DNA of 42,545 nt from an uncultured Erysipelotrichaceae bacterium (GTDB lineage: Bacteria; Bacillota_I; Bacilli_A; RF39; UBA660), in assembly GCA_902797275.1 (NCBI GenBank), contig CADBSI010000024.1, forward strand, positions 1 through 42,545. Reading direction: 5' to 3'. The notes below the pieces were generated by a model that saw nothing but the letters and a program-made list of their open reading frames with translations, made no database searches and was not told the origin of the DNA. The stretch's first letter is position 1. Each line of letters starts with the position of its first letter. A program made the position numbers and the translations under genes. Shown piece by piece: positions 4,796 to 38,781 of this stretch.

Positions 4796-4824
4796 TTGAC
4801 AGATTAGTAAAAATATGGTATAAT
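4796..4824 (+). promoter_or_regulatory. Near-consensus sigma-A promoter with extended -10
   Basis: TTGACA (4796-4801), exact 17-nt spacer, TGgTATAAT (TG 4816-4817, TATAAT 4819-4824). Located about 45 nt upstream of the 243-aa ORF. Confidence 0.6.
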
Positions 4825-4867
4825 CAAGCCACTTATCGTATTATGGGCTTAAATAGTTGGGGGTTGT

Positions 4868-7945: not shown

Positions 7946-7954
7946 ATAACTAAT

Positions 7955-8172
7955 TAAAGCGTTGATGCAGAGAAGTATTATATTTAGCTCCTTTTAGAGA
8001 GTTAATGGTCGGTGAAAATTAACAGGAAGAATATAAGAATAACACTGTGGAGCATATTTCTGAAATTAGTAGGAAATATCGGTTTATAACCGTTATCAAA
8101 AAGAGATATCAGCACTGATAAGAAGAGTGGTACCGTGATTAGTCGCCTCTTTTGATCGGTGCTTTTATTTTT
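7955..8172 (+). promoter_or_regulatory. T-box leader (tRNA-Asn sensing) with terminator/antiterminator
   Basis: 5' GA/K-turn element AGCGTTGATGCAGAGAAGTA. AGAGAG box and distal-loop GGTCGGTGAAA. Candidate specifier AAC (8041-8043) followed by A. T-box sequence AGAGTGGTACCGTG (8124-8137). Terminator arms 8112-8127 and 8147-8162, then TTTTATTTTT. Confidence 0.85.
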
Positions 8173-8183
8173 AAGGAGGATGT

Positions 8184-9563
8184 ATGAAAATAGATGTAAA
8201 AGATGTCATGAATGATTTAGAAAAGTATATGGGAAAAAAAGTTGTAATAGATGGTTGGGTTAGAAATCATCGTAAACAAAAAGAATTTGGTTTTATTGAT
8301 TTTAGTGATGGAACTTGTTTTAAAAATGTTCAATTAGTTTATGATAATAAATTAGCTGATTTTGAAGAAATTACTAAAATTAAAGTTGGTTCTAGTTTAG
8401 AAGTAGAAGGTGAGGTTATTAAATCTGAAGGAAGTGGTCAAGACTTTGAAATTAAAGTTAGTAGTATCAAAGTAATTGGAGAATGTCCTGATGAATACCC
8501 AATTCAACCTAAAAGACATACAAGAGAGTTTTTAAGAGAACAAGCTTATTTAAGACCTAGAACTAATTTATTTAATGCTATTTTTCGTGTTAGAAGCATT
8601 GCTGCTTATGCAATACATAATTATTTTCAAGAAAGAGGCTATGTATATTTTCATGCTCCTTTAATTACATCAAGTGATTGCGAAGGAGCAGGTCAAATGT
8701 TTCAAGTTACAACTCTTGATTTAAATAGAGTTGCTAAATCTGGTGTAGTTGATTACTCAAAAGATTTCTTTGGTAAAACCGCAGCTCTTACTGTATCAGG
8801 TCAACTTGAAGCTGAAACATTTGCTCTTGCTTATAAAAAAGTTTATACATTTGGTCCTACTTTTAGAGCTGAAAATTCTAATACTAAAACTCATGCAAGT
8901 GAATTTTGGATGATTGAACCAGAAATTGCTTTTTGTGATTTAGAAGGTGATATGAATGTCATGGAAGATATGCTTAAATATGTAGTTAAATATGTTCTTG
9001 ATAATTGTAAAGATGAAATGAAATTCTTTGATAGCTTTGTTGAAAAAGGTTTATTAGAAAAACTAAATAAATTATTAACTAGTCATTTTACAAGAATTAG
9101 TCATCATGATGTAATAACAATTTTAAAAGAAGCAAAAGTTGATTGGGAATTCAAGCCAGAATATGGAGAAGACATAGCTAAAGAACATGAAAAATATATA
9201 ACTGAGTATTTTGATGGTCCTGTATTTATAACAAATTGGCCAAAAGATATAAAAGCTTTCTATATGAAATTAAATCCAGATAAAGAAACTGTTGCTGCAG
9301 TTGATTTAGAAGTGCCAGGAGCAGGGGAATTAATGGGTGGATCTCAAAGAGAAGAAGACTATGATAAATTAGTTAGTCGTATGAAAGAATTAGATATGGA
9401 TGCTTCATCTATGGAATGGTATTTAAATTTAAGAAAATTTGGAGGATGTCCTCATTCAGGATTTGGAATGGGCTTTGAAAGATTATTAATTTATCTAACA
9501 GGGGTTGAAAACATTCGTGATGTTATACCTTACCCAAGAACTCCAGGAAACTGTGAATACTAA
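8184..9563 (+). CDS. asnS: Asparagine--tRNA ligase
   Basis: 459 aa class IIb synthetase. N-terminal OB fold, FRAENSNTKTHASEFWMIEPE (AsnRS-type motif 2 region), GFGMGFERL motif 3. AGGAGG RBS. Confidence 0.9.
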   Translation: MKIDVKDVMNDLEKYMGKKVVIDGWVRNHRKQKEFGFIDFSDGTCFKNVQLVYDNKLADFEEITKIKVGSSLEVEGEVIKSEGSGQDFEIKVSSIKVIGECPDEYPIQPKRHTREFLREQAYLRPRTNLFNAIFRVRSIAAYAIHNYFQERGYVYFHAPLITSSDCEGAGQMFQVTTLDLNRVAKSGVVDYSKDFFGKTAALTVSGQLEAETFALAYKKVYTFGPTFRAENSNTKTHASEFWMIEPEIAFCDLEGDMNVMEDMLKYVVKYVLDNCKDEMKFFDSFVEKGLLEKLNKLLTSHFTRISHHDVITILKEAKVDWEFKPEYGEDIAKEHEKYITEYFDGPVFITNWPKDIKAFYMKLNPDKETVAAVDLEVPGAGELMGGSQREEDYDKLVSRMKELDMDASSMEWYLNLRKFGGCPHSGFGMGFERLLIYLTGVENIRDVIPYPRTPGNCEY

Positions 9564-15624: not shown

Positions 15625-15999
15625 TCAGATTTTTTCATTATTTAAAATAATTGTATATATAGTTAAACCAATTAATAGAATTGATATCATTATATAATTA
15701 TTATTATAATATGTTTGATTATTAATAATATCTAAAGTTGTATTAGTATTAGTTATTTTATATAGCATAAATGTATAAAAGTAAATACCTATGTTTAATA
15801 TATTATAAGATAAACTATTTTTATAAATATCTTTTTTAGATAAAATTGCAATTATAATAAATATAGAATAAATAATATTTATAATAAAATATATAATAGA
15901 TAAAATACTAGTTTTATATAATTTATTAATTAGTAGAAACGTGATAAATAAATAAATTGTAAAAAGAATTATTGATAAATAATATACTATTTTTTTCAT
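15625..15999 (-). CDS. Small polytopic membrane protein (about 4 TM), unknown function
   Basis: 124 aa, very hydrophobic. Its ATG overlaps the TGA stop of the upstream AAA+ gene (ATGA at 15996-15999). Confidence 0.55.
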   Translation of the reverse strand: MKKIVYYLSIILFTIYLFITFLLINKLYKTSILSIIYFIINIIYSIFIIIAILSKKDIYKNSLSYNILNIGIYFYTFMLYKITNTNTTLDIINNQTYYNNNYIMISILLIGLTIYTIILNNEKI

Positions 16000-17201
16000 G
16001 TTTCATCCTTTAATATTTGTTTAGTTTCCATTAAATAGATATCTCTAAATACTTCATTAAATCTTACGAGTTCTTTTTTTATTACATCAGGGTAGATTAA
16101 TTTAGTATTTAAAATAGCTTTTCTAACATCTCTTATGTCTACTTCTTGACGATTATCAAATGCAGCATAGGAAAAAGCTTGTTGTAAAATAGTAAGAGAA
16201 ATATCAGGGTATCTTACAGAAGTTTCATAAGTTCTTTTAAACTCACTTGTTATATCAGTTATAAAGGCCATGATGTTTTGTTTAACAAAGTCTGTATATT
16301 TTAGTTTTAAACCCATTTTCTTTTCAAATTTTGGATAAGTTCCCATCATGATTTGAATATTCATTTCTCTTGTTGGTTCTGATACTTCAACTTTTTGAAA
16401 ACGCCTTACAAATGCTTTGTCTCTTAAGATATAACGATCGTATTCATCACTTGTAGTTGCTCCTATTATTTTGATTGTACCTCGATCAATAACTGGTTTA
16501 AAAATATTAGCAAAGTCTAAGGTGTTTTCTCCATTACCAATTAAAGTATGAATTTCATCAATGAAGACCATAACTCGATCAAGATTTTTTAAATTATCTA
16601 CAACATGTTGAATTCTTAATTCTTGCGTATCAGGAATAATACCAGTTAAACTAGCACTACTTAGTTTTAAAATAGTATAATTTTTTAAAGCATCAGGAAT
16701 ATTTCCATTTTGAATTCTATAACTTAATCCTTCGACAATTGCCGTTTTACCAATACCTGGTTTACCAACTAAAATACCTGATTTTTCAGGAGTTAAAAGA
16801 ATTACAATTAATTCTTGAATTTCTTTTTCTCTTCCTATAGCAGGATTAGTTATATATTCCTTATCAGTTATATCTTCACCATATTCTAAAAGAACTTTAT
16901 AATATGGACTATTTTTTATATCTTTGCTATCATTAGAACTATCTTGTTCTTCTTGATTTTCTTCATTAGTATTGTTTTCTTCCTGAACACTATTTTCTTC
17001 TTGACTTGTTTTTTTTATTTCTTCTTTATTAGTATCATCATTAATAGTTTCTATAACTTCATCATCAAGATTATCTTCATTATCTATTACATCAATAACA
17101 GTATCAAACATATTATTTTCTTTAGTTTCATCTTCTAAAATATCCTCATTTTGATCTTCATCAATTAATTCTAAATTGTCTATATCAGTTTGATTTTCCA
17201 T
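15996..17201 (-). CDS. Single-domain Clp/Hsp100 D1-type AAA+ ATPase with acidic N-terminal tail
   Basis: 401 aa. Residues 1 to about 100 are D/E/N-rich low complexity. The rest aligns by eye to ClpC D1: [49 protein letters not shown]. There is no Clp_N, no D2 domain and no ClpP loop. AAAGGTGGTGG RBS. Confidence 0.7.
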   Translation of the reverse strand: MENQTDIDNLELIDEDQNEDILEDETKENNMFDTVIDVIDNEDNLDDEVIETINDDTNKEEIKKTSQEENSVQEENNTNEENQEEQDSSNDSKDIKNSPYYKVLLEYGEDITDKEYITNPAIGREKEIQELIVILLTPEKSGILVGKPGIGKTAIVEGLSYRIQNGNIPDALKNYTILKLSSASLTGIIPDTQELRIQHVVDNLKNLDRVMVFIDEIHTLIGNGENTLDFANIFKPVIDRGTIKIIGATTSDEYDRYILRDKAFVRRFQKVEVSEPTREMNIQIMMGTYPKFEKKMGLKLKYTDFVKQNIMAFITDITSEFKRTYETSVRYPDISLTILQQAFSYAAFDNRQEVDIRDVRKAILNTKLIYPDVIKKELVRFNEVFRDIYLMETKQILKDET

Positions 17202-29928: not shown

Positions 29929-30834
29929 ATGGAAAAATTAGGAGTTAAAAAAAATAATACAAATTTATTAAAAACTAATTATGCATCTGCTTTAACTGAT
30001 ATTTATTTCAAACAAATAACTGATAATCTTGATGTAGATCAAACAGTTAAAATGAAATATACATCACGTCTTAAAGAGGCTAGTTTAGAACTTAAAAATT
30101 GTTCTAATTGTTCTTCTTTACTTGCTTGTAAAAATGCTTTAGCAGGATTTATTTTAACCCCTAAAGTTTCTAATAATGCTATTACTTTTTCTTATCAGAA
30201 ATGTAAATATAAAGAGGAATGTGAAAAAATAAATAAATATAAAAATAATGTTTATTATTTTGAAATGCCTACTTTAATTAAAAATGCTAGTTTTAAAAAT
30301 ATTTATAAAGATGATTTAAAACGTTTAGAAATAATAAAAAAAATTAAATCTTTTTATGATGATTATAGAGAAAATAAAGATTGTAAAGGAATTTATCTAA
30401 CTGGTAATTTTGGTTCAGGTAAATCTTATTTAATAGCAGCTTTATTTAATGAACTTGCTAAACAAAATTATCAAAGTGCTATTATTTATTTTCCAGAATT
30501 TTTAAGAAGTCTAAAAGCAAGTTTTAATACTAGTAGTTTATATGAAGAAAAATTTGATTATATTAAAAAAGTACCACTTTTATTAATAGATGATATAGGA
30601 GCTGAAAAGTTAACTGATTGGGCAAGAGATGAAATACTAGGAAGTATTTTACAATATAGAATGGATTTTAATTTAAAAACTTTTTTTACTTCTAACTTAA
30701 CAATAGAAGAACTTGAAAATCATCTCCAATTTACCAATGGTGTAATTGATAAAGTTAAAGCTAGAAGAATAATCGAAAGAATTAAATATTTAAGTTGTGA
30801 AATTACTTTAGTAAGTGTTAATAGAAGGAGTTAG
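29929..30834 (+). CDS. dnaI: Primosomal helicase loader DnaI (DnaC/IstB-like AAA+)
   Basis: 301 aa. N-terminal Cys cluster (CSNCSSLLACKN ... CKYKEEC). Walker A GNFGSGKSYL, Walker B LLLIDDIG. AGGAGG RBS. Confidence 0.65.
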   Translation: MEKLGVKKNNTNLLKTNYASALTDIYFKQITDNLDVDQTVKMKYTSRLKEASLELKNCSNCSSLLACKNALAGFILTPKVSNNAITFSYQKCKYKEECEKINKYKNNVYYFEMPTLIKNASFKNIYKDDLKRLEIIKKIKSFYDDYRENKDCKGIYLTGNFGSGKSYLIAALFNELAKQNYQSAIIYFPEFLRSLKASFNTSSLYEEKFDYIKKVPLLLIDDIGAEKLTDWARDEILGSILQYRMDFNLKTFFTSNLTIEELENHLQFTNGVIDKVKARRIIERIKYLSCEITLVSVNRRS

Positions 30835-30837
30835 AAT

Positions 30838-32661
30838 ATGAAAGAAAGCAATATGTTAAGATTAAAAATAATATTAAAAAGCAGTGATTACAATAACTGT
30901 CGTATGCATTTAAATCTTGATGATAATGCTTTCTTTTTATTACTTATTAATATAATAGAAGATGCAGTTATTAACTATAATCCTATAAATAACTATGAAT
31001 ATTTAACTAAAGCTAGTTCTTATTTAAAAATATCTTATGAACAACTTAGTAAAAATAAAAAAAGTCATTATCACTCTTTAATAGCAAAACTTAAAAAATT
31101 ATATAAAAAAGCCATAGGAATGGTTGATTTATATGATCAAGAATACTTTCGTAATACTAGTATTAATTTAGAAGATATTTTAAGTAGAAAAAAAGAAAAA
31201 ATAATTAATAATGTAAATGATAATTATTTATATAAATTAGTCTATGAAACAATATTTAATTTTAAAAATTTAGAATACTTAGATATTTTAATTGAAAAAG
31301 ATCCTAGTATTGTAAATGTTAGCAAAGAAACACCTATTTTTTTAGATATAATTGATACTTATTTAAAATGTTTAAAAGATAAAGATAAGAAAAACTCTTC
31401 TTATTATTTGAGAGTAATTAACAAATTTCTTGATACAAATACATTTGAACTTGATAATCAAATAAGGGAAGATATTCTAGAAACTTTAAATGATTTTATT
31501 AATTATAAAAATGGTTTAACTAAAACTGATTTAGAAGATCTTAAAAATATAATTAGTAAATTAAAAAAGCAATATGTTTTAAATAATTATAATATTAATT
31601 TAGATGAATATGAAATGAATAAAAGTGAAATGGATATTTTAGAACACTTTGAAGATATGCTTGAGAATAGAATTTATTTAAATGATTATATTATAACTAT
31701 AGATGATATAGATTCAACTGTATTAGATGATGGAATATCAATTGAAAGACTTAAAAATGGAAATATCATGTTTAAAGTTCATATAACTGATCCTTTAGGA
31801 ATGTATAGTTATAATTCAAGTATTATAACTGATGCTAAGTTAAGAACAACAACTATCTATAATATAAATCCACCTAGTCAAATGCTACCAAGTATTTTAT
31901 CAAGTAATAAGTTATCGCTTTTAAAAAATAAAAAAAGACTTGCTAAAAGTTTTTGCTTTGAATTTAGTAAAGAACATGGAATAGTTGATTTTAAAGTTTT
32001 AAATACAGTTATAAATGTAAGTAAAAGACATACGTATACAGAAATAAATGATTTATATAAAAAAGGTGGAACAACTAAAGAAGAAACAGAAATGTTAGGT
32101 TTATATGATGAAGTTTTAAAATATTTGAAAAAATTATTTAAAAATGCTAAAATTTATGAAGAATTAAAAAGAGAAAGTATTATTGGTAATAAACAAGGAA
32201 CATCTTCTTTTTCAGAAAGTTTAATTAGTTATTTAATGATGTTTACAGGTTTTAAAACAGCTGAAATGTTTCATGATTTAGGTTATCCATATGCTTATAG
32301 ATGTCATAAAATAGATGAGAAATGGCTAATTATTTTAGATGAATATATAAAAAATCCCAAAGATATAAATCAAAAGAAAATGTTAATGGATATAAAATCT
32401 AGATTTCCTAAAGCTTTCTATACTAGATTTAATCAAGGACATAAAGGTTTAGACGTATCTTACTATTCTCATATTACCAGTCCTTTAAGAAGATTTTGTG
32501 ATATTTTAAATTTATTATGTTTAGATACTTGTTATTTTAAAAAGCCAACTGATAGACAAATTTATCAATTAGAAAAAGAAATAGATACTACTTGTGATTA
32601 TATAAATATGCAAAGTAATTCAATAGATGAGTATTTAAGTAAAATAAAAGTAAAAAAATAA
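30838..32661 (+). CDS. RNB-domain (RNase II/R family) protein with a novel N-terminal region; no CSD or S1 seen
   Basis: 607 aa. RNB motif I-like TIDDIDSTVLDDGISIE and motif IV SHITSPLRRFCDILN in the C-terminal 320 aa. The first ~280 aa are helical and unassignable. The start is 4 nt after the dnaI stop, with a GAAGGAG RBS. Confidence 0.6.
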   Translation: MKESNMLRLKIILKSSDYNNCRMHLNLDDNAFFLLLINIIEDAVINYNPINNYEYLTKASSYLKISYEQLSKNKKSHYHSLIAKLKKLYKKAIGMVDLYDQEYFRNTSINLEDILSRKKEKIINNVNDNYLYKLVYETIFNFKNLEYLDILIEKDPSIVNVSKETPIFLDIIDTYLKCLKDKDKKNSSYYLRVINKFLDTNTFELDNQIREDILETLNDFINYKNGLTKTDLEDLKNIISKLKKQYVLNNYNINLDEYEMNKSEMDILEHFEDMLENRIYLNDYIITIDDIDSTVLDDGISIERLKNGNIMFKVHITDPLGMYSYNSSIITDAKLRTTTIYNINPPSQMLPSILSSNKLSLLKNKKRLAKSFCFEFSKEHGIVDFKVLNTVINVSKRHTYTEINDLYKKGGTTKEETEMLGLYDEVLKYLKKLFKNAKIYEELKRESIIGNKQGTSSFSESLISYLMMFTGFKTAEMFHDLGYPYAYRCHKIDEKWLIILDEYIKNPKDINQKKMLMDIKSRFPKAFYTRFNQGHKGLDVSYYSHITSPLRRFCDILNLLCLDTCYFKKPTDRQIYQLEKEIDTTCDYINMQSNSIDEYLSKIKVKK

Positions 32662-32734
32662 AAAAAATTTAATTTTATTGCTTTTACTTGTAATTTTAAA
32701 ATTATAGTTTATAATTAAATTAAAAGGAGAATTT

Positions 32735-33424
32735 ATGAAAGAAAATAATTTAAAAGTTTTAGTTGTTATTTTAACAATATTAGTACTTTGTTTAGGAGGT
32801 TTTATTATTTACGATAAAGTATTAAAAGATAATAATATAGAAAATAAAGATAATGATAATAAGACTGATAATGATAATGACAAAGTTGTAGTAGATGATA
32901 GTAAAATAGAAATACATAATAGTATTGATTATGATAATTGTAATCTTGATTTAACTAATTCTGTTAATCGTTTTGTTTGCTATAATGAGAAATTATTTTA
33001 TAATGAGTATGCAAATGGTATAAATGCTAAAGATTTCTTAACTACTTATTTAACTTATTTTTCTTCTAAAAGTGATACTTTAATTCATGAAGAACAAATA
33101 AATGATATTAATTGGAAAAGAAGTATTAGTAAAAGTGCAAGTAAACAGTTAATTAATAAATACTTTGGCACTTTAGAAATACCTAAGTTAGACACAAGTA
33201 ATGAAGAATTTGTTTTACAAGAAGATAATGATAACTATTATATAATAGGAAGAAGTATTGGAATGGATAACAAGATTTTAACATTTAAAGCATCTGAAAA
33301 AATAGGTGATTATGAATATAAACTTATCTTTAATATAACAGATGGTTATTCTAATAATTTTGGTACTAGAACTATGAAAATTAAATTAAATGGTAATTAC
33401 TATCAAATAAAAGAAATTAGCTAA
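32735..33424 (+). CDS. Membrane-anchored hypothetical protein
   Basis: 229 aa. N-terminal signal-anchor VLVVILTILVLCLGGFIIY followed by a D/N/K-rich linker. AAGGAG RBS. Its last four codons lie inside the left direct repeat. Confidence 0.55.
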   Translation: MKENNLKVLVVILTILVLCLGGFIIYDKVLKDNNIENKDNDNKTDNDNDKVVVDDSKIEIHNSIDYDNCNLDLTNSVNRFVCYNEKLFYNEYANGINAKDFLTTYLTYFSSKSDTLIHEEQINDINWKRSISKSASKQLINKYFGTLEIPKLDTSNEEFVLQEDNDNYYIIGRSIGMDNKILTFKASEKIGDYEYKLIFNITDGYSNNFGTRTMKIKLNGNYYQIKEIS

Positions 33425-33440
33425 GGCTAATTTTTTTGTA
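33406..33440. repeat. Left copy of the 32-nt direct repeat (also the intrinsic terminator of the 229-aa gene)
   Basis: AATAAAAGAAATTAGCTAAGGCTAATTTTTTT (33406-33437) is identical to 36926-36957. GTA follows in both copies, after one extra T on the right. Hairpin AAATTAGC-TAAG-GCTAATTT plus T7. Confidence 0.9.
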
Positions 33441-33488
33441 AAATAAAAGTAAATAATATAATAATAAAAATGTTTATTCATAAATATA

Positions 33489-33497
33489 TGATACAAT
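33489..33497 (+). promoter_or_regulatory. Extended -10 element (TGaTACAAT) in front of the cassette
   Basis: TG at 33489-33490 and TACAAT at 33492-33497. No good -35 element. About 30 nt upstream of the ATG at 33527. Confidence 0.3.
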
Positions 33498-33526
33498 GTA
33501 TATGAGAATAGGAGTTGTATAAAAAT

Positions 33527-34813
33527 ATGAATATACAAAGAATAGAAAACGTTTTAAGTCAAATAGAAGTAAATAGAAATTATAAAGATTTTACTAATTT
33601 ATTATCATTAGAAGAAAGAAAACAACTCATTTATTATATTGAAACAGATCCAACCCTTGTTTCTGAGGTTATTAATAAATTTAAGGATGATAATTTTATT
33701 ACAAATTATTTTACGGAAGAAGAAGCAGCTAATATATATAACAATGAATTTAATGAATTAAGTGAACTATCAAAAAATATAGTAATATGTAATTTGAGTT
33801 TAATTTTAGCAAAAGAGGCACTAAAAAAATATACACCAGACGTAGAAATTATTAGGCTTATTTTGAAAAAATTATCTTCCGATTCTGAAAAAATGGAATT
33901 TATTAAACCTTATCTATCTAATTTATCTGATTATGATAAATTTAGAATATATGCACGTAGTTTAGATGAAATAGATTCTAAATTATTATGCATGAAAACA
34001 TATCCTGAGTGTTATACTAGTTTTCCACTTCTTTGTAGAAATGTAAAAACTGATGAGGAGATAAAAAAAATCATTGATTTTTATCAAAAAAATTTTCAGA
34101 ATTATCACTTTGAATATGAATCACAATTTGAAGAAATTCTAGCAAGTATGTTTTCAAGCTTTAGTAATGATAACTTGAAATTACAATATTTTGATAGTAT
34201 TTTAGGTGAATCTAATAAAGCAAAAATAATTCAAAGTTTGAAAGACGATAACTTAAAATTACAATATTTAGATATTTTTTTACTTGAATTAACTAAGGTA
34301 AGAATAATTCAAAGTTTAAAAGACGATAATCTAAAATTACAATATTTAACTAAATTCTATGAAGATAATTATAAAGCGCAAATAATTTTAACCATAAATG
34401 ATTTAAAAATCAAAGTTAAGGCTTTAACATTTTTAGATAATATTACTAGTTATTGTATTCATGCTGATTGGCTTGATGATGTTGAAAATATAAATGATGA
34501 CATAAACAGGGAAATAATTAGAAAAATAGCTGAAGAAAATGCTTTAAATTATGATAACCTTTTCCAACTTTTTTTGAAATTCGGTTATGGTATTAGAACT
34601 TTAGGAAACAATTTAATAAAAATTGTTAATTTATCTCCAGATGAATTTAAAAAAATAATTCAAATACTAGATATTAAAGAATCTTCAAAGTTAACAATGA
34701 ATGATGTTAATAATTTTATTCCTACATTTTATGAAAGAGAATTTAGAATTAATAATCGTGAGGAACTTTTAATTTTTTCTAGATTACAAAACTTAATTTT
34801 GAATAAAGATTGA
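33527..34813 (+). CDS. N-terminal part of a large uncharacterised repeat protein (ends at an in-frame TGA)
   Basis: The track ORF starts at TTG 33515, but AGGAG (33510-33514) abuts it, so the ATG at 33527 is more plausible. Helical sequence with three 26-aa tandem repeats. Same reading frame as 34913-36721. Confidence 0.6.
   Translation: MNIQRIENVLSQIEVNRNYKDFTNLLSLEERKQLIYYIETDPTLVSEVINKFKDDNFITNYFTEEEAANIYNNEFNELSELSKNIVICNLSLILAKEALKKYTPDVEIIRLILKKLSSDSEKMEFIKPYLSNLSDYDKFRIYARSLDEIDSKLLCMKTYPECYTSFPLLCRNVKTDEEIKKIIDFYQKNFQNYHFEYESQFEEILASMFSSFSNDNLKLQYFDSILGESNKAKIIQSLKDDNLKLQYLDIFLLELTKVRIIQSLKDDNLKLQYLTKFYEDNYKAQIILTINDLKIKVKALTFLDNITSYCIHADWLDDVENINDDINREIIRKIAEENALNYDNLFQLFLKFGYGIRTLGNNLIKIVNLSPDEFKKIIQILDIKESSKLTMNDVNNFIPTFYEREFRINNREELLIFSRLQNLILNKD
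34166..34399 (+). repeat. Three tandem 78-bp (26-codon) in-frame coding repeats
   Basis: GATAAC/T-TTG/TTA/CTA-AAATTACAATATTT recurs at 34169, 34247 and 34325 (period 78). Segments 34225-34270 and 34303-34348 match 43/46 nt. Peptide core (I)IQSLKDDNLKLQYL. Confidence 0.85.
34811..34813 (+). other. Single in-frame TGA separating two co-framed ORFs
   Basis: 33515 and 34913 are both in frame 2 (mod 3). The 33 codons from 34814 to 34912 contain no stop and read EGIINILSKINKIVDINDILEKNNINSDTFIDN. Confidence 0.9.
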
Positions 34814-34912
34814 GAAGGAATAATAAATATTTTATCTAAAATTAATAAAATTGTTGACATAAATGATATATTAGAAAAAAATAATATTAATTCAGATACA
34901 TTTATTGATAAT

Positions 34913-36721
34913 TTGTTAGAAAATGAAAATAATGAATTTTTACTTAATGTTTTGCATGAAATAACTAATAAATATTTAAATAAAATACGAAATTTATATG
35001 TGGCAGAAAGAAAAGAAAATGCAGAAAATGAGTTGAATTTAGATTATGATTATGATAAGAACTATTTAATATCTAAATTTTTTCAAAAATATGATATTCA
35101 ATATATTTATAATTTTATTAATAGTGAAATAGATAAAAGTAAATTATTGGATGATGGGCAAAGAAAATTATTGAATAATGAATCTTTACTTATAGAATGT
35201 CTTAAATTTATGAAAGATAAAGAACATTACCCAATGGATGAATTTTCTAAAATTAAAAGTAAGCTTAGATCATTAAATGGTATCTTAAATATATTATATG
35301 AAGAGAAAAAACTTGACTTTTTAGGTAATAAAAAAGATGAAAAAGCTAAAATTATTTTAAAACCGAAAGAAGTTGTATCTAAAGATTTCTTTATTAAAAT
35401 ATTAAATGAATTAGATATTGATTTATTGAGAGATAAACTTTTATCAAATCCTGAATTATATGAAAAAATGCTTAATATCTTAAAAAAATATAAGTTTATG
35501 AATTGGTCTGATACTTTTGAAAATTTATTAAAAGCTGCTGATTTATCATTTAATGAAAGAGATATTGCTATATTAATTAATTATTTTTATAGTTTTTATT
35601 CAAAGTTAGAAGCAAAACAACAAAATGGATTAATAGAAAGTATAAGATTATCAAATATTCTTGATGAATTGAGAACTTATGGTAGTTCCTCAATAAAATA
35701 TGATTATTTATTAGGAAAAGAAGATTCAGACCTTATTATTTCTAATCCAGGTCCTAATTCAGCTAGCTTAAAGGCGGAGGAAAGATTAAAAAAAGTGCCT
35801 GAGGAAATATTAATTCAATTTAAGAGAAAATATATTACAGTTCCTCCGATGGATTTGGATGTATCATTAGAAAATGGTAAAAAGATACATGTAGATATTG
35901 GTGATATAACAAGTACAATTAATTTAACATATGGTGAAAGAACAGGTGCGTGTATGCGAATTGGTGGTGCAGGTAGTAGTTTGTTTGATTTTTGTTTAGA
36001 AAATGAAAATGGTTTTCATATTAGATTAACTAATCCTATTACTGGTAATTTTATAAGTAGAGTAAGTGGTTTTAGAAATGGTAATACTGTGTTTTTAAAT
36101 CAACTTAGATATAGTTTAGATAAAGATATATCTAATTCTGATTTAATAGGTGTAATTAGTGTAGTAGCAAGAAAAATTGTTGAATTAACTAAAGAAAGTG
36201 AATATCCTATTAAAAATGTTGTTATATCTGATGGTTATGTAATGAGTGCACGACATAATGATAGAACTACATTAAATGTTAATGATGTAAAGAAAGGATA
36301 TAGTCATTTTTATTCAGATGTAAGTAGTAGTAATGCAATTTATTTAGAAAAAAATGATGAAATAGAAGTAGGACCTGAAAAAGCAGGAAAATATGATGTT
36401 TTAAGAAAAAGAATAATATGCTATGAAAATATAAATGAAATAACTGAACAAATTCAAAAATTTAATCTTATAAATGGTTTATTAAAGGGTAAATCATTAG
36501 GTGATATATCTATAATAGATGAAAAATTTATTATTAATATTAGTAAATTATATATGGGTGAAGACTTTTTAATAGCATTTGACTTTGATGGTAATATTCT
36601 TTGGAAATTTATTTTAGAAAGAGAAGATCATTTTAAGAAAAAAGCCAACGAAGAAATTAATGTATTAATTAATTATTTAAATGAAAAAGATTTAGTTAAT
36701 AAAGGAGGAAAAGCTAGATGA
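34913..36721 (+). CDS. C-terminal part of the same large uncharacterised protein (open from 34814); no family recognised
   Basis: 602 aa from a TTG that has no Shine-Dalgarno sequence. The open frame continues upstream to the TGA at 34811. It ends in a TGA that overlaps the next ATG. The least low-complexity segment is around GERTGACMRIGGAGSS...GFHIRL. Confidence 0.6.
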   Translation: MLENENNEFLLNVLHEITNKYLNKIRNLYVAERKENAENELNLDYDYDKNYLISKFFQKYDIQYIYNFINSEIDKSKLLDDGQRKLLNNESLLIECLKFMKDKEHYPMDEFSKIKSKLRSLNGILNILYEEKKLDFLGNKKDEKAKIILKPKEVVSKDFFIKILNELDIDLLRDKLLSNPELYEKMLNILKKYKFMNWSDTFENLLKAADLSFNERDIAILINYFYSFYSKLEAKQQNGLIESIRLSNILDELRTYGSSSIKYDYLLGKEDSDLIISNPGPNSASLKAEERLKKVPEEILIQFKRKYITVPPMDLDVSLENGKKIHVDIGDITSTINLTYGERTGACMRIGGAGSSLFDFCLENENGFHIRLTNPITGNFISRVSGFRNGNTVFLNQLRYSLDKDISNSDLIGVISVVARKIVELTKESEYPIKNVVISDGYVMSARHNDRTTLNVNDVKKGYSHFYSDVSSSNAIYLEKNDEIEVGPEKAGKYDVLRKRIICYENINEITEQIQKFNLINGLLKGKSLGDISIIDEKFIINISKLYMGEDFLIAFDFDGNILWKFILEREDHFKKKANEEINVLINYLNEKDLVNKGGKAR

Positions 36722-36927
36722 AAAAAGAAGGAACAGTAAAAAAATATGATGGTTATACAGGTATCATTAATGATTATTTAGGAAAAGAGTACTTATTATT
36801 AAAAAAAGAAACATTAGAAAAAATAAATGAAAAAGATATTGTTATATTTGATCCAGAAGTTGTTATTACATCAGAAGAAGATAGAAATGTTGCTAGGTTT
36901 GTAAAGAAAAAAGTTTTAAAACCATAA
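36718..36927 (+). CDS. Small cold-shock-domain-like (OB-fold-like) protein
   Basis: 69 aa. AAGGAGG RBS 8 nt upstream. ATGA overlap with the preceding ORF. GTVKKYDGYTGIINDYLGKEYLLLKK ... IVIFDP ... ARFV follows the spacing of the CspA pattern GTVKWFN..KGFGFI...G.DVFVH...V.F. Confidence 0.45.
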   Translation: MKKEGTVKKYDGYTGIINDYLGKEYLLLKKETLEKINEKDIVIFDPEVVITSEEDRNVARFVKKKVLKP

Positions 36928-36961
36928 TAAAAGAAATTAGCTAAGGCTAATTTTTTTTGTA
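36926..36961. repeat. Right copy of the direct repeat (terminator of the cassette)
   Basis: Identical 32 nt (36926-36957), then one extra T, then GTA. It starts inside the TAA stop of the 69-aa ORF and ends 40 nt before the spoVAC ATG. Confidence 0.9.
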
Positions 36962-37001
36962 TATTTTTCTAATTTTTACTAATAATATAATTGGTGAAAA
37001 T

Positions 37002-37442
37002 ATGGAAAAAAAGTTATATGATAAATTAGTTTTAGAACATGCTCCTAAAGAGAAAAGGTTAGAAAATGCTGTTATTGCTTTTTTAATAGGAGGAGTTATG
37101 GGGGTAATAGGGGAGTTATTAGTTGAATTTTATGGTTATTATTTACACATATCAAGAAGCGATGCTTCAGTTTTTATGATTATAACTTTAATATTTTTAG
37201 CAAGTTTATTTACAGCTCTTGGTTTCTTTGATAAATGGGTTAAGTTTGCTAAGTGTGGCTTGATAATTCCAATTACCGGGTTTGCTCATTCTATGACTAG
37301 TGCTGCTATTGAATATAAAAGAGAAGGTTTTGTAACTGGACTTGGTGCTAATATGTTTAAACTTGCTGGAACAGTTATTTTATATGGAGTAGTATCAGCT
37401 TATATTTTTGGTCTTATAAGACTTATAATAGGAGGTATCTAA
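37002..37442 (+). CDS. spoVAC: Stage V sporulation protein AC
   Basis: About 146 aa from the ATG at 37002 (GGTGA RBS; the track TTG at 36957 lies in the terminator repeat). Polytopic. FLIGGVMGVIGE and ITGFAHSM blocks are typical of SpoVAC. Confidence 0.8.
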   Translation: MEKKLYDKLVLEHAPKEKRLENAVIAFLIGGVMGVIGELLVEFYGYYLHISRSDASVFMIITLIFLASLFTALGFFDKWVKFAKCGLIIPITGFAHSMTSAAIEYKREGFVTGLGANMFKLAGTVILYGVVSAYIFGLIRLIIGGI

Positions 37443-38434
37443 TGACTTTTCGCTTTGATAATGTTTATATTCGTGATGTTGCAACAGTTGTAGGTCCATA
37501 TGAAAGTAAAGGTCCTCTTTCAAAAAAGTTTGATCAAAGTTATGATGATATGTACTTTGACTGTGATTCTTTTGAAAAAGCTGAAGTAAAAATTTTATTT
37601 GATAGTATAAATATTTTATTAAATAAAGTAAAAAAAGATAAATCAGATATAGATTTATTTATTTCCGGAGATTTGCAAAATCAAATTACTGCTAGTTCCT
37701 ATGTTGCTAGAAATTTAAAACTTCCTTTTTTAGGAATATATTCAGCTTGTGCTACTAATGTAGAAGGATTGATAATTGGTTCTAATTTCTTAGAAAACCA
37801 TTTAGTAGATAATGTTTTAGTTTCTGTTAGTAGTCATAATATGGTATCAGAAAAACAATTTAGAAATCCAACAGAGTATGGGGCTCCTAAACCTAAAACA
37901 GCAACTTTTACAGCAACAGGAGGAGCAAGTTGTTTATTGACTAATAAAAGTGGAAAAGTTAAAATAACTGCTGGTACTATTGGTAAAGTTGTTGATTATA
38001 ACCAAACTAATCCTTTAGATATGGGTTCGGTTATGGCTCCTGCAGCAGCTGACGTTTTAAATACTCATTTAAATGATTTAGATAGAGATATTACCGATTA
38101 TGATTTAATTTTAACAGGTGATTTAGGAATAATCGGTAAGAATATTTTAATTGATTTCATGAAAAGTGAATATGGAATTGATATAGAAAATATTTATAAT
38201 GATTGTGGTGTTATGTTATATGATTTAGAAAAACAAAAAGATGTTTTAGCCGGTGGATCAGGTCCTGTTTGTAGTGCTTTAGTAGTATATTCAGATATTA
38301 TTAAAAAACTAGAGAAGAAGGAATTAAAAAGAGTTTTATATATTGCAACGGGAGCTTTATTTAATCCGACTTCAGTTTTTCAAAAAGAAAATATTTTAGG
38401 AATAGCTCATGCTATTAGTTTGGAGAGCATATGA
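37442..38434 (+). CDS. spoVAD: Stage V sporulation protein AD (thiolase-fold)
   Basis: 330 aa. Thiolase-like GIYSACAT with the Cys nucleophile position, GDLG, LAGGSGPVCSA. TAATG junction with spoVAC. Confidence 0.85.
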   Translation: MTFRFDNVYIRDVATVVGPYESKGPLSKKFDQSYDDMYFDCDSFEKAEVKILFDSINILLNKVKKDKSDIDLFISGDLQNQITASSYVARNLKLPFLGIYSACATNVEGLIIGSNFLENHLVDNVLVSVSSHNMVSEKQFRNPTEYGAPKPKTATFTATGGASCLLTNKSGKVKITAGTIGKVVDYNQTNPLDMGSVMAPAAADVLNTHLNDLDRDITDYDLILTGDLGIIGKNILIDFMKSEYGIDIENIYNDCGVMLYDLEKQKDVLAGGSGPVCSALVVYSDIIKKLEKKELKRVLYIATGALFNPTSVFQKENILGIAHAISLESI

Positions 38435-38781
38435 TATACATATATTCATTTTTATTTGCAGGTTTAATTTGTTTAATTGGTCAATTAATTCTTGATAATA
38501 CTAAGTTAACCCCAGGTCATATTACTAGTTTATTTGTTATAATTGGATCGTTTTTAGATATTTTTAACATTTATGATTTAATAGTTGCTCATGTTGGAGG
38601 AGGTGCTTTAGTACCAATTACATCATTTGGTCATTTATTAATTCATGGTGGTATGCAAGGTGCTATGGAAAATGGTTTTATAGGTCTTGCTATGGGAATG
38701 TTTAATTTTACAGCATCTGGTATAACTTCAGCTATTTTCTTTGCATTTATCTTTTCTTTATTCTTTAAACCAAGAGACTAA
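38431..38781 (+). CDS. spoVAE: Stage V sporulation protein AE (AEb type)
   Basis: 116 aa membrane protein homologous in pattern to SpoVAC (PITSFGHLL). ATGA overlap with spoVAD. Confidence 0.8.
   Translation: MIYIYSFLFAGLICLIGQLILDNTKLTPGHITSLFVIIGSFLDIFNIYDLIVAHVGGGALVPITSFGHLLIHGGMQGAMENGFIGLAMGMFNFTASGITSAIFFAFIFSLFFKPRD

Follow-up and report, generated by a model that had tools for sequence, protein, structure and literature searches.

Layout of the locus

We analysed a stretch of DNA of 42,545 nucleotides (nt) from an uncultured Erysipelotrichaceae bacterium (contig CADBSI010000024.1 of assembly GCA_902797275.1), hereafter called the window, which is very AT-rich (about 22% GC) and which carries a large gene with a TGA codon in its reading frame. 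A listing of open reading frames (ORFs) over positions 32000-38500 gave two plus-strand ORFs in one frame, at 33515..34813 (432 amino acids, aa) and 34913..36721 (602 aa). A preliminary description of the window had proposed that the two are a single gene interrupted by one in-frame TGA, and both the translation and the homologues described below bear this out. When 33515-36721 was translated in one pass, the only internal stop encountered was the TGA at 34811-34813 (plus strand). The real start of the gene is the ATG at 33527 (MNIQ...), the position at which all homologues begin, with MNIQ or MNTQ, and the sequence shows a Shine-Dalgarno motif, AGGAG, at 33510..33514 (plus strand), 12 nt upstream of this ATG. 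Positions 33527-36721 hence make up one frame of 1,065 codons, with 1,064 sense positions and a terminal stop, in which the TGA is the sole break.

The TGA falls at codon 429. On its 5' side, 33527..34810 (plus strand) holds the N-terminal 428 codons, whose expected truncated product, matched exactly by the database protein P0015, corresponds in an AlphaFold2 (AF2) model to the beginning of a repeat region made up entirely of helices. On its 3' side, 34814..36721 (plus strand) is fully open and holds the remaining 635 codons and the natural TGA stop; by comparison with homologues, it would encode the remaining helices and a conserved C-terminal domain. The large gene is followed by a 69-aa partner gene at 36718..36927 (plus strand), the ATG of which overlaps the stop of the large gene (ATGA).

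The spacer between the premature TGA and the TTG at which the second ORF was annotated to start comprises 33 codons (34814-34912) and is open, reading EGIINILSKINKIVDINDILEKNNINSDTFIDN, exactly as given in the preliminary description. From the base composition of the window, we calculated that a random stretch of 33 codons would be open with a chance of ~0.03, close to the earlier estimate of about 1 in 20. It is homology, however, and not these statistics that settles the status of the two ORFs as one gene. As had also been proposed, no Shine-Dalgarno sequence was found upstream of the TTG at 34913; indeed, no start codon with a ribosome-binding site of its own was found anywhere in 34814..36721, and the first in-frame ATG 3' of the TGA lies at 35336, ~175 codons further on. 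For annotation purposes, the two 'genes' are best joined into a single gene marked as carrying an internal stop, either as a pseudogene or as a nonsense allele, and the ORF pair should be given neither as two proteins nor as a recoding event.

The gene and codon 429 in relatives

Homologues were sought with the fused protein sequence, with an X at the position of the stop, as the query. The matches were single proteins of ~1,000-1,260 aa that span the entire query. One of them, P0001 (1,064 aa), is 97% identical to the fused query and represents a conspecific cluster of 72 members. All 13 conspecific full-length alleles (96.8-98.2% identity) are uninterrupted; 12 have the same length as the frame in the window and one has 1,062 aa. 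At the DNA level, the 3,195 nt of the gene are collinear between the window and six conspecific loci, without insertions or deletions. Outside the species, among GTDB contigs sampled at one genome per species, 39 of the 41 loci have a single open frame, ~900-1,900 aa long and free of internal TGA codons, and the other two hold a frame of 549 aa and a remnant of 87 aa. When 1.84 billion cluster representatives (clusters at 50% identity) were searched with a profile, 707 family members were returned, and among the best 150 of the 707 nearly all are ~1,000-1,500 aa long with both halves covered. The comparison of orthologues that the preliminary description had put forward, two separate genes versus one, thus turned out in favour of a single gene with a sense codon at the site, though this codon specifies Arg or Lys and is not the TGG that had been given as an example.

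Protein alignment of the 13 conspecific alleles showed Arg at the position of the TGA in 12 cases and Lys in one (11 Arg and 1 Lys among the 12 alleles of the same length, and Arg in the 1,062-aa allele). Other species have Lys, Val, Glu or Leu here and never Trp, Cys or Gly. A stop at codon 429 was seen in none of the 13 conspecific alleles and in none of 12 more distant homologues. The corresponding codons in the conspecific DNA sequences are AGA (locus L001), CGA (L045 and L046) and AAA (L047-L049), versus TGA in the window. Judged from these alignments, the TGA is a one-base change at a variable, non-critical residue. The most economical change would most likely be CGA to TGA, a C to T transition at 34811; this is favoured because CGA is the codon of the closest intact allele read (L045/L046), which differs from the window at 41 positions. 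The context of the stop, AAAGAT-TGA-GAAGGA, indicates a base substitution in non-repetitive sequence. A phase-variable contingency locus, which would switch through a hypermutable simple-sequence tract or an invertible element, is not supported, as the substitution lies outside repeats; tandem 78-nt repeats are located 440 nt upstream and are in frame.

We also considered whether the gene might function in two parts, with the 428-aa N-terminal piece and a re-initiated C-terminal piece acting as two subunits. Directly 3' of the TGA lies GAAGGA (34814-34819), and an in-frame ATT stands 9 nt beyond it, at 34829; this arrangement could give weak re-initiation, although re-initiation at this ATT is speculation. 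In the AF2 model, helices 416-425 and 429-442 are joined by a loop of three residues in which codon 429 is located, so that the break would fall between two helices of the repeat solenoid and not at a domain boundary. However, GAAGGA encodes Glu-Gly, a pair of residues that is also present in other alleles, and the lack of a canonical start with a Shine-Dalgarno sequence downstream of the stop, at the TTG (34913) as well as at the distant first ATG (35336), argues against a second subunit. Nor is there evidence that the family is recurrently split in nature. A search with the C-terminal domain returned many short proteins, but the three that we inspected, all on long contigs, were not natural splits: the apparent splits in L051 (4912-4921) and L052 (4801-4810) are 10-N scaffold gaps, and that in L050 (about 4823-4836) is a frameshift beside an A6 run. 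No natural two-gene form was found among these three short members, and the split-looking database relatives are mostly artefacts. Taken together, we consider a functional split to be very unlikely.

Nature of the in-frame TGA

If TGA were read as Trp, Gly or selenocysteine, the frame would not be interrupted at all. The low GC content of about 22% and the labelling of family relatives as Bacilli or 'Tenericutes' metagenome-assembled genomes (MAGs) might point in this direction, given that UGA is read as Trp in Mollicutes. The claim of the preliminary description that TGA is a genuine stop in this genome was nevertheless upheld. SpoVAD aligns to positions 3-327 of a 327-position NCBIfam profile, YabG to positions 96-282 of a 283-position profile and Pgk through to the end of its profile, in each case directly before a TGA, and several TGA stops in the window sit within ATGA stop/start overlaps of gene pairs. 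Over 41 ORFs in the window, stop usage is TAA 22, TAG 11 and TGA 8, with Trp encoded by TGG. Moreover, a scan of the window in all six frames detected only one pair of long open frames joined by a TGA, namely the pair described here. Genetic codes 4 and 25 were therefore ruled out, and so was selenocysteine, since there is no selenocysteine insertion sequence (SECIS)-like hairpin 3' of the TGA, homologues carry R, K, V, E or L at the site and Rfam gave no match of this kind. Overall, an altered code or selenocysteine has virtually no likelihood.

A further possibility listed in the preliminary description was programmed or leaky read-through of the UGA. No stimulatory RNA structure was detected in 34800-34900 (−7.5 kcal/mol, z = −0.16 versus shuffles), no Rfam recoding element or SECIS was found, the only match above the gathering threshold in the window being a T-box at 7953-8153, and the search for a suppressor tRNA found no tRNA genes within the window. 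Programmed read-through or recoding was set aside because the stop is not conserved across orthologues and no RNA structure adjoins it; the residue is also variable. This option of the preliminary description was thus not supported, and only unprogrammed background leakiness of UGA is left. Structure-stimulated read-through, selenocysteine and code reassignment are accordingly all rejected.

A broader form of the argument is that read-through has a functional or regulatory role, the UGA being tolerated or even selected so as to give a low, tunable level of full-length protein together with a short isoform. The downstream frame is wholly intact, as such a role would demand, and UGA is the leakiest bacterial stop, with ~6% read-through reported for catA86-TGA in Bacillus subtilis (Karow et al., 1998, as cited in PMC7918605); it has also been argued that many in-frame bacterial stops persist under purifying selection (PMC7918605). 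Yet a very recent mutation would leave the downstream frame just as intact. The stop is limited to one near-clonal lineage whose relatives use ordinary, variable codons at the site (R/K/V/E/L), stimulatory structure is missing and the site itself is a short inter-helix loop without special conservation. We regard a regulatory role of this kind as quite improbable. It seems unlikely, too, that the TGA allele represents a maintained low-expression state, with a trickle of full-length protein and an accumulating 428-aa helical fragment; if it did, the strain would have a different dosage of a two-gene module that is widespread in gut Bacilli.

To assess whether the TGA is real, we compared the contigs that carry it. 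The exact 428-aa product P0015 is present on four contigs, and the 13 listed intact alleles are present on 56, in keeping with the earlier suggestion of strain-level variation. Besides the window, two of the TGA contigs could be read, L003 (ERZ919322) and L002 (ERZ28614419), and both carry the TGA. Over 6,367 nt, L003 and the window are 100% identical. L002 has three clustered mismatches in 7,484 nt, at window positions 35601-35605 (TCAAAG versus TTAATT, or Ser-Lys versus Leu-Ile), a few bases from the end of L003, and both contigs terminate within the large gene. This suggests strain mixture or heterogeneity, or else an assembly bubble within the gene, in the L002 and L003 samples.

These features might be taken to mean that the stop is an assembly or sequencing artefact, with CGA or AGA as the true codon 429 and an intact gene, the more so because all other conspecific alleles are intact and because metagenome assemblies of this family do hold false splits (the N-runs of L051 and L052). 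However, the lesion is a clean substitution and neither a gap nor a homopolymer indel, and the same base is found in the window, in ERZ919322 and in ERZ28614419; a random consensus error is disfavoured because the TGA recurs in three differently named assemblies. An assembly error, which the preliminary description had raised, is thus judged unlikely, with a small residual probability.

The intact alleles evolve under purifying selection, with Nei-Gojobori omega values of 0.14-0.17 that are similar to those of the neighbouring RNB gene. Besides the stop, the allele in the window has five private amino-acid changes relative to the 12 intact alleles of the same length (I435, I838, G875, D993 and N1052), all in variable columns and mostly to states found in other species. 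No secondary stops or frameshifts were found in this allele. The remainder of the gene is without decay, which argues that the lesion is recent. A recent nonsense mutation was the first of the options offered in the preliminary description, and the CGA, AGA and AAA codons of conspecific strains at the site, together with the otherwise intact frame, agree with it.

We therefore favour, with a probability of about 0.8, the interpretation that the TGA marks a strain-restricted, recent nonsense allele of a conserved 1,064-codon gene, a segregating loss-of-function or strong knock-down allele and not a recoding signal. The locus is one gene with a single-base difference, its relatives have sense codons at the site, TGA has its standard use and there is no further decay. 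We infer in which direction the codon mutated, that the product is truncated and that the partner gene is affected by polarity. In one strain lineage, a substitution at 34811 would have turned codon 429 into TGA. Most ribosomes would then terminate at this codon, giving a 428-aa helical fragment without the C-terminal, GNAT-like domain. The downstream 635 codons, which lack a start signal, would be made only by rare near-cognate decoding of UGA or by chance re-initiation, and background leakiness of UGA would supply the full-length protein at a level of a few percent at most. The 69-aa partner gene, which is translationally coupled and whose start overlaps the natural stop of the large gene (ATGA), would probably be expressed less as well.

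Several observations weigh against this interpretation or soften it. The three TGA contigs are 99.96-100% identical and perhaps derive from the same or related samples, so that their concordance is not necessarily independent support. The five private changes are all located 3' of the stop (p about 0.08 for five against zero), and omega of the C-terminal part is slightly raised in comparisons involving the window (0.21-0.33 versus 0.14-0.19). This weak, non-significant trend hints at most at relaxed selection 3' of the stop; equally, it does not demonstrate a continuing need for the downstream part. Finally, a UGA leakiness of a few percent would make the allele hypomorphic, not null. As a nonsense allele, the stop is biologically ordinary, showing only that the strain manages without, or with much less of, the full-length protein. 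Such a natural knockout strain could help to reveal the role of the two-gene module.

The protein family, its surroundings and known systems

The full-length AF2 model (predicted local distance difference test, pLDDT, 76) consists of all-helical repeats over residues 1-770, followed by an alpha/beta domain. Within the helical region, three tandem 78-nt units at 34141..34374 (plus strand; repeat family D1), which are 60-73% identical in alignment, encode 26-aa helical repeats with the pattern ..SLKDDNLKLQYL.. In related species such 26-aa repeats (..LKDDNLKLQYL.. in the window) number about 2 to more than 10 units, and this variation in copy number indicates that the N-terminal repeat region expands and contracts between species.

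The C-terminal 330 aa (35729..36718, plus strand) form a predicted domain with a GNAT-like alpha/beta core and an extra subdomain, as delineated by AF2, Foldseek and the invariant columns of the family. Modelled alone from a 51-sequence alignment, this domain reached a pLDDT of 93.8 and a predicted template-modelling (TM) score, pTM, of 0.90. The top 50 PDB matches listed by Foldseek are all GNAT-type acetyl- or acyltransferases or toxins of the same fold, among them NatD, GCN5, PCAF, RimI, TacT and GmvT, with E values of 4e-4 to 7e-3 (eight with E ≤ 1e-3), probabilities of about 0.9-1.0 and TM-scores on the target mostly of 0.4-0.59. The invariant residues of the family (N799, G803, E804, T806, C809, R811, N853 and N858) cluster in this domain, where H831, R845, G852 and S863 are nearly invariant, and the conserved motif reads GERTGxCMRIGG...GFH...SRVSGFRNGNT.FLN.LR. 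The segment R811-I-G-G-A-G is a candidate for the acetyl-CoA-binding motif A (Q/R-x-x-G-x-G/A, expected at the beta4-alpha3 junction), whose pattern it fits; however, R811 alone is invariant, G814 is nearly so, and some members have another residue in place of the last Gly.

Neither the large protein nor 37 diverse relatives matched any Pfam or NCBIfam family, GNAT families included, and searches of PDB sequences, PHROGs and PADLOC gave nothing meaningful for the large protein. On the strength of the models, the C-terminal domain is GNAT-like in predicted fold and fails GNAT membership at the level of sequence. Our best guess is that the large protein may be an acyl-transfer enzyme on a helical scaffold.

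In more than 20 loci, belonging to other species and strains, a gene for a homologue of the 69-aa protein directly adjoins the large one (for example L004-L014, L019, L026, L027, L031, L033, L041 and L051), for which reason we regard the two as a conserved two-gene module. For the 69-aa protein itself, neither Pfam and NCBIfam nor the PDB sequences gave a match; by eye, its GTVKKYDG..GII pattern may recall cold-shock/OB-fold proteins. The family loci that we found are from uncultured Bacilli-type MAGs, mostly of gut and rumen. Of more use than the stop itself is, as a by-product, this unannotated family of roughly 700 clusters at 50% identity with a conserved small partner.

The module is flanked by two identical 32-nt hairpins. 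The first, AATAAAAGAAATTAGCTAAGGCTAATTTTTTT, at 33406..33437 (plus strand; repeat family D2), follows an upstream 229-aa gene and overlaps its last codons; the second, at 36926..36957 (plus strand), closes the two-gene unit. The repeat is terminator-like: its predicted fold is a hairpin of 12 bp with a T-run behind it (−10.5 kcal/mol, z = −3.5). Near-identical copies are also present in conspecific strains with an intact gene, and the hairpins are therefore unrelated to the stop. The preliminary description had spoken of a repeat-bracketed cassette: the identical flanking repeats are indeed present, as terminator-like hairpins that intact strains share in near-identical form. A mobile element was likewise rejected, the repeats being terminator-like and the large protein and its neighbours having no PHROG or PADLOC matches except for that of a DnaC-like loader encoded two genes upstream.

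A DnaC/DnaI-like helicase loader (301 aa) and an RNB-domain exoribonuclease (607 aa) occupy 29929-32661 (plus strand) and also share a frame, being separated by a TAG and one codon. As the two belong to different families and RNB has its own ATG, this is a chance same-frame adjacency and not a split gene.

Two other features of the window were recorded. The T-box leader at 7953-8153 (plus strand; RF00230, 134.8 bits) lies upstream of a 459-aa ORF (8184..9563). At 15625-17201 (minus strand), the match of a 401-aa ORF is limited to the first AAA+ module of ClpA/ClpB-type ATPases (~98-375 of 734 profile positions), and an overlapping (ATGA) 124-aa ORF without a family match follows it; the 401-aa ORF may represent either a short protein of the Clp type or a further disrupted gene.

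With respect to known systems, the alpha/beta core of the 330-aa domain resembles the GNAT superfamily in that its model superposes in Foldseek on GCN5, PCAF, NatD, RimI and TacT/GmvT. Unlike GNAT proteins, it has no sequence or profile match, its TM-scores on the target are modest (0.42-0.59), its invariant motif is not a recognised GNAT motif and it is fused to a helical solenoid of ~770 aa. The in-frame UGA within a long ORF is a feature shared with selenocysteine systems, from which the window differs in having no downstream hairpin, no Cys or selenocysteine in homologues and no conserved UGA. The situation is also comparable to that of catA86-TGA, where UGA is a stop in a Firmicute, and by analogy background read-through would yield little full-length protein. 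However, the stop stands in another codon context here, one that is not known to be stimulatory, any read-through here would be an unprogrammed error, and the ~6% figure comes from B. subtilis and not from the present host.

In-frame stops of the present kind are a known and common phenomenon, and those in bacterial genes have been surveyed by Belinky et al. (2021; PMC7918605). Unlike the persisting stops of that survey, the stop in the window shows no evolutionary persistence, so that there is no ground on which to argue for its maintenance by read-through. It is instead like the nonsense polymorphisms and recent pseudogenes described there: a one-base, in-frame stop, here a TGA, confined to one strain lineage in a gene that is otherwise intact and under selection.

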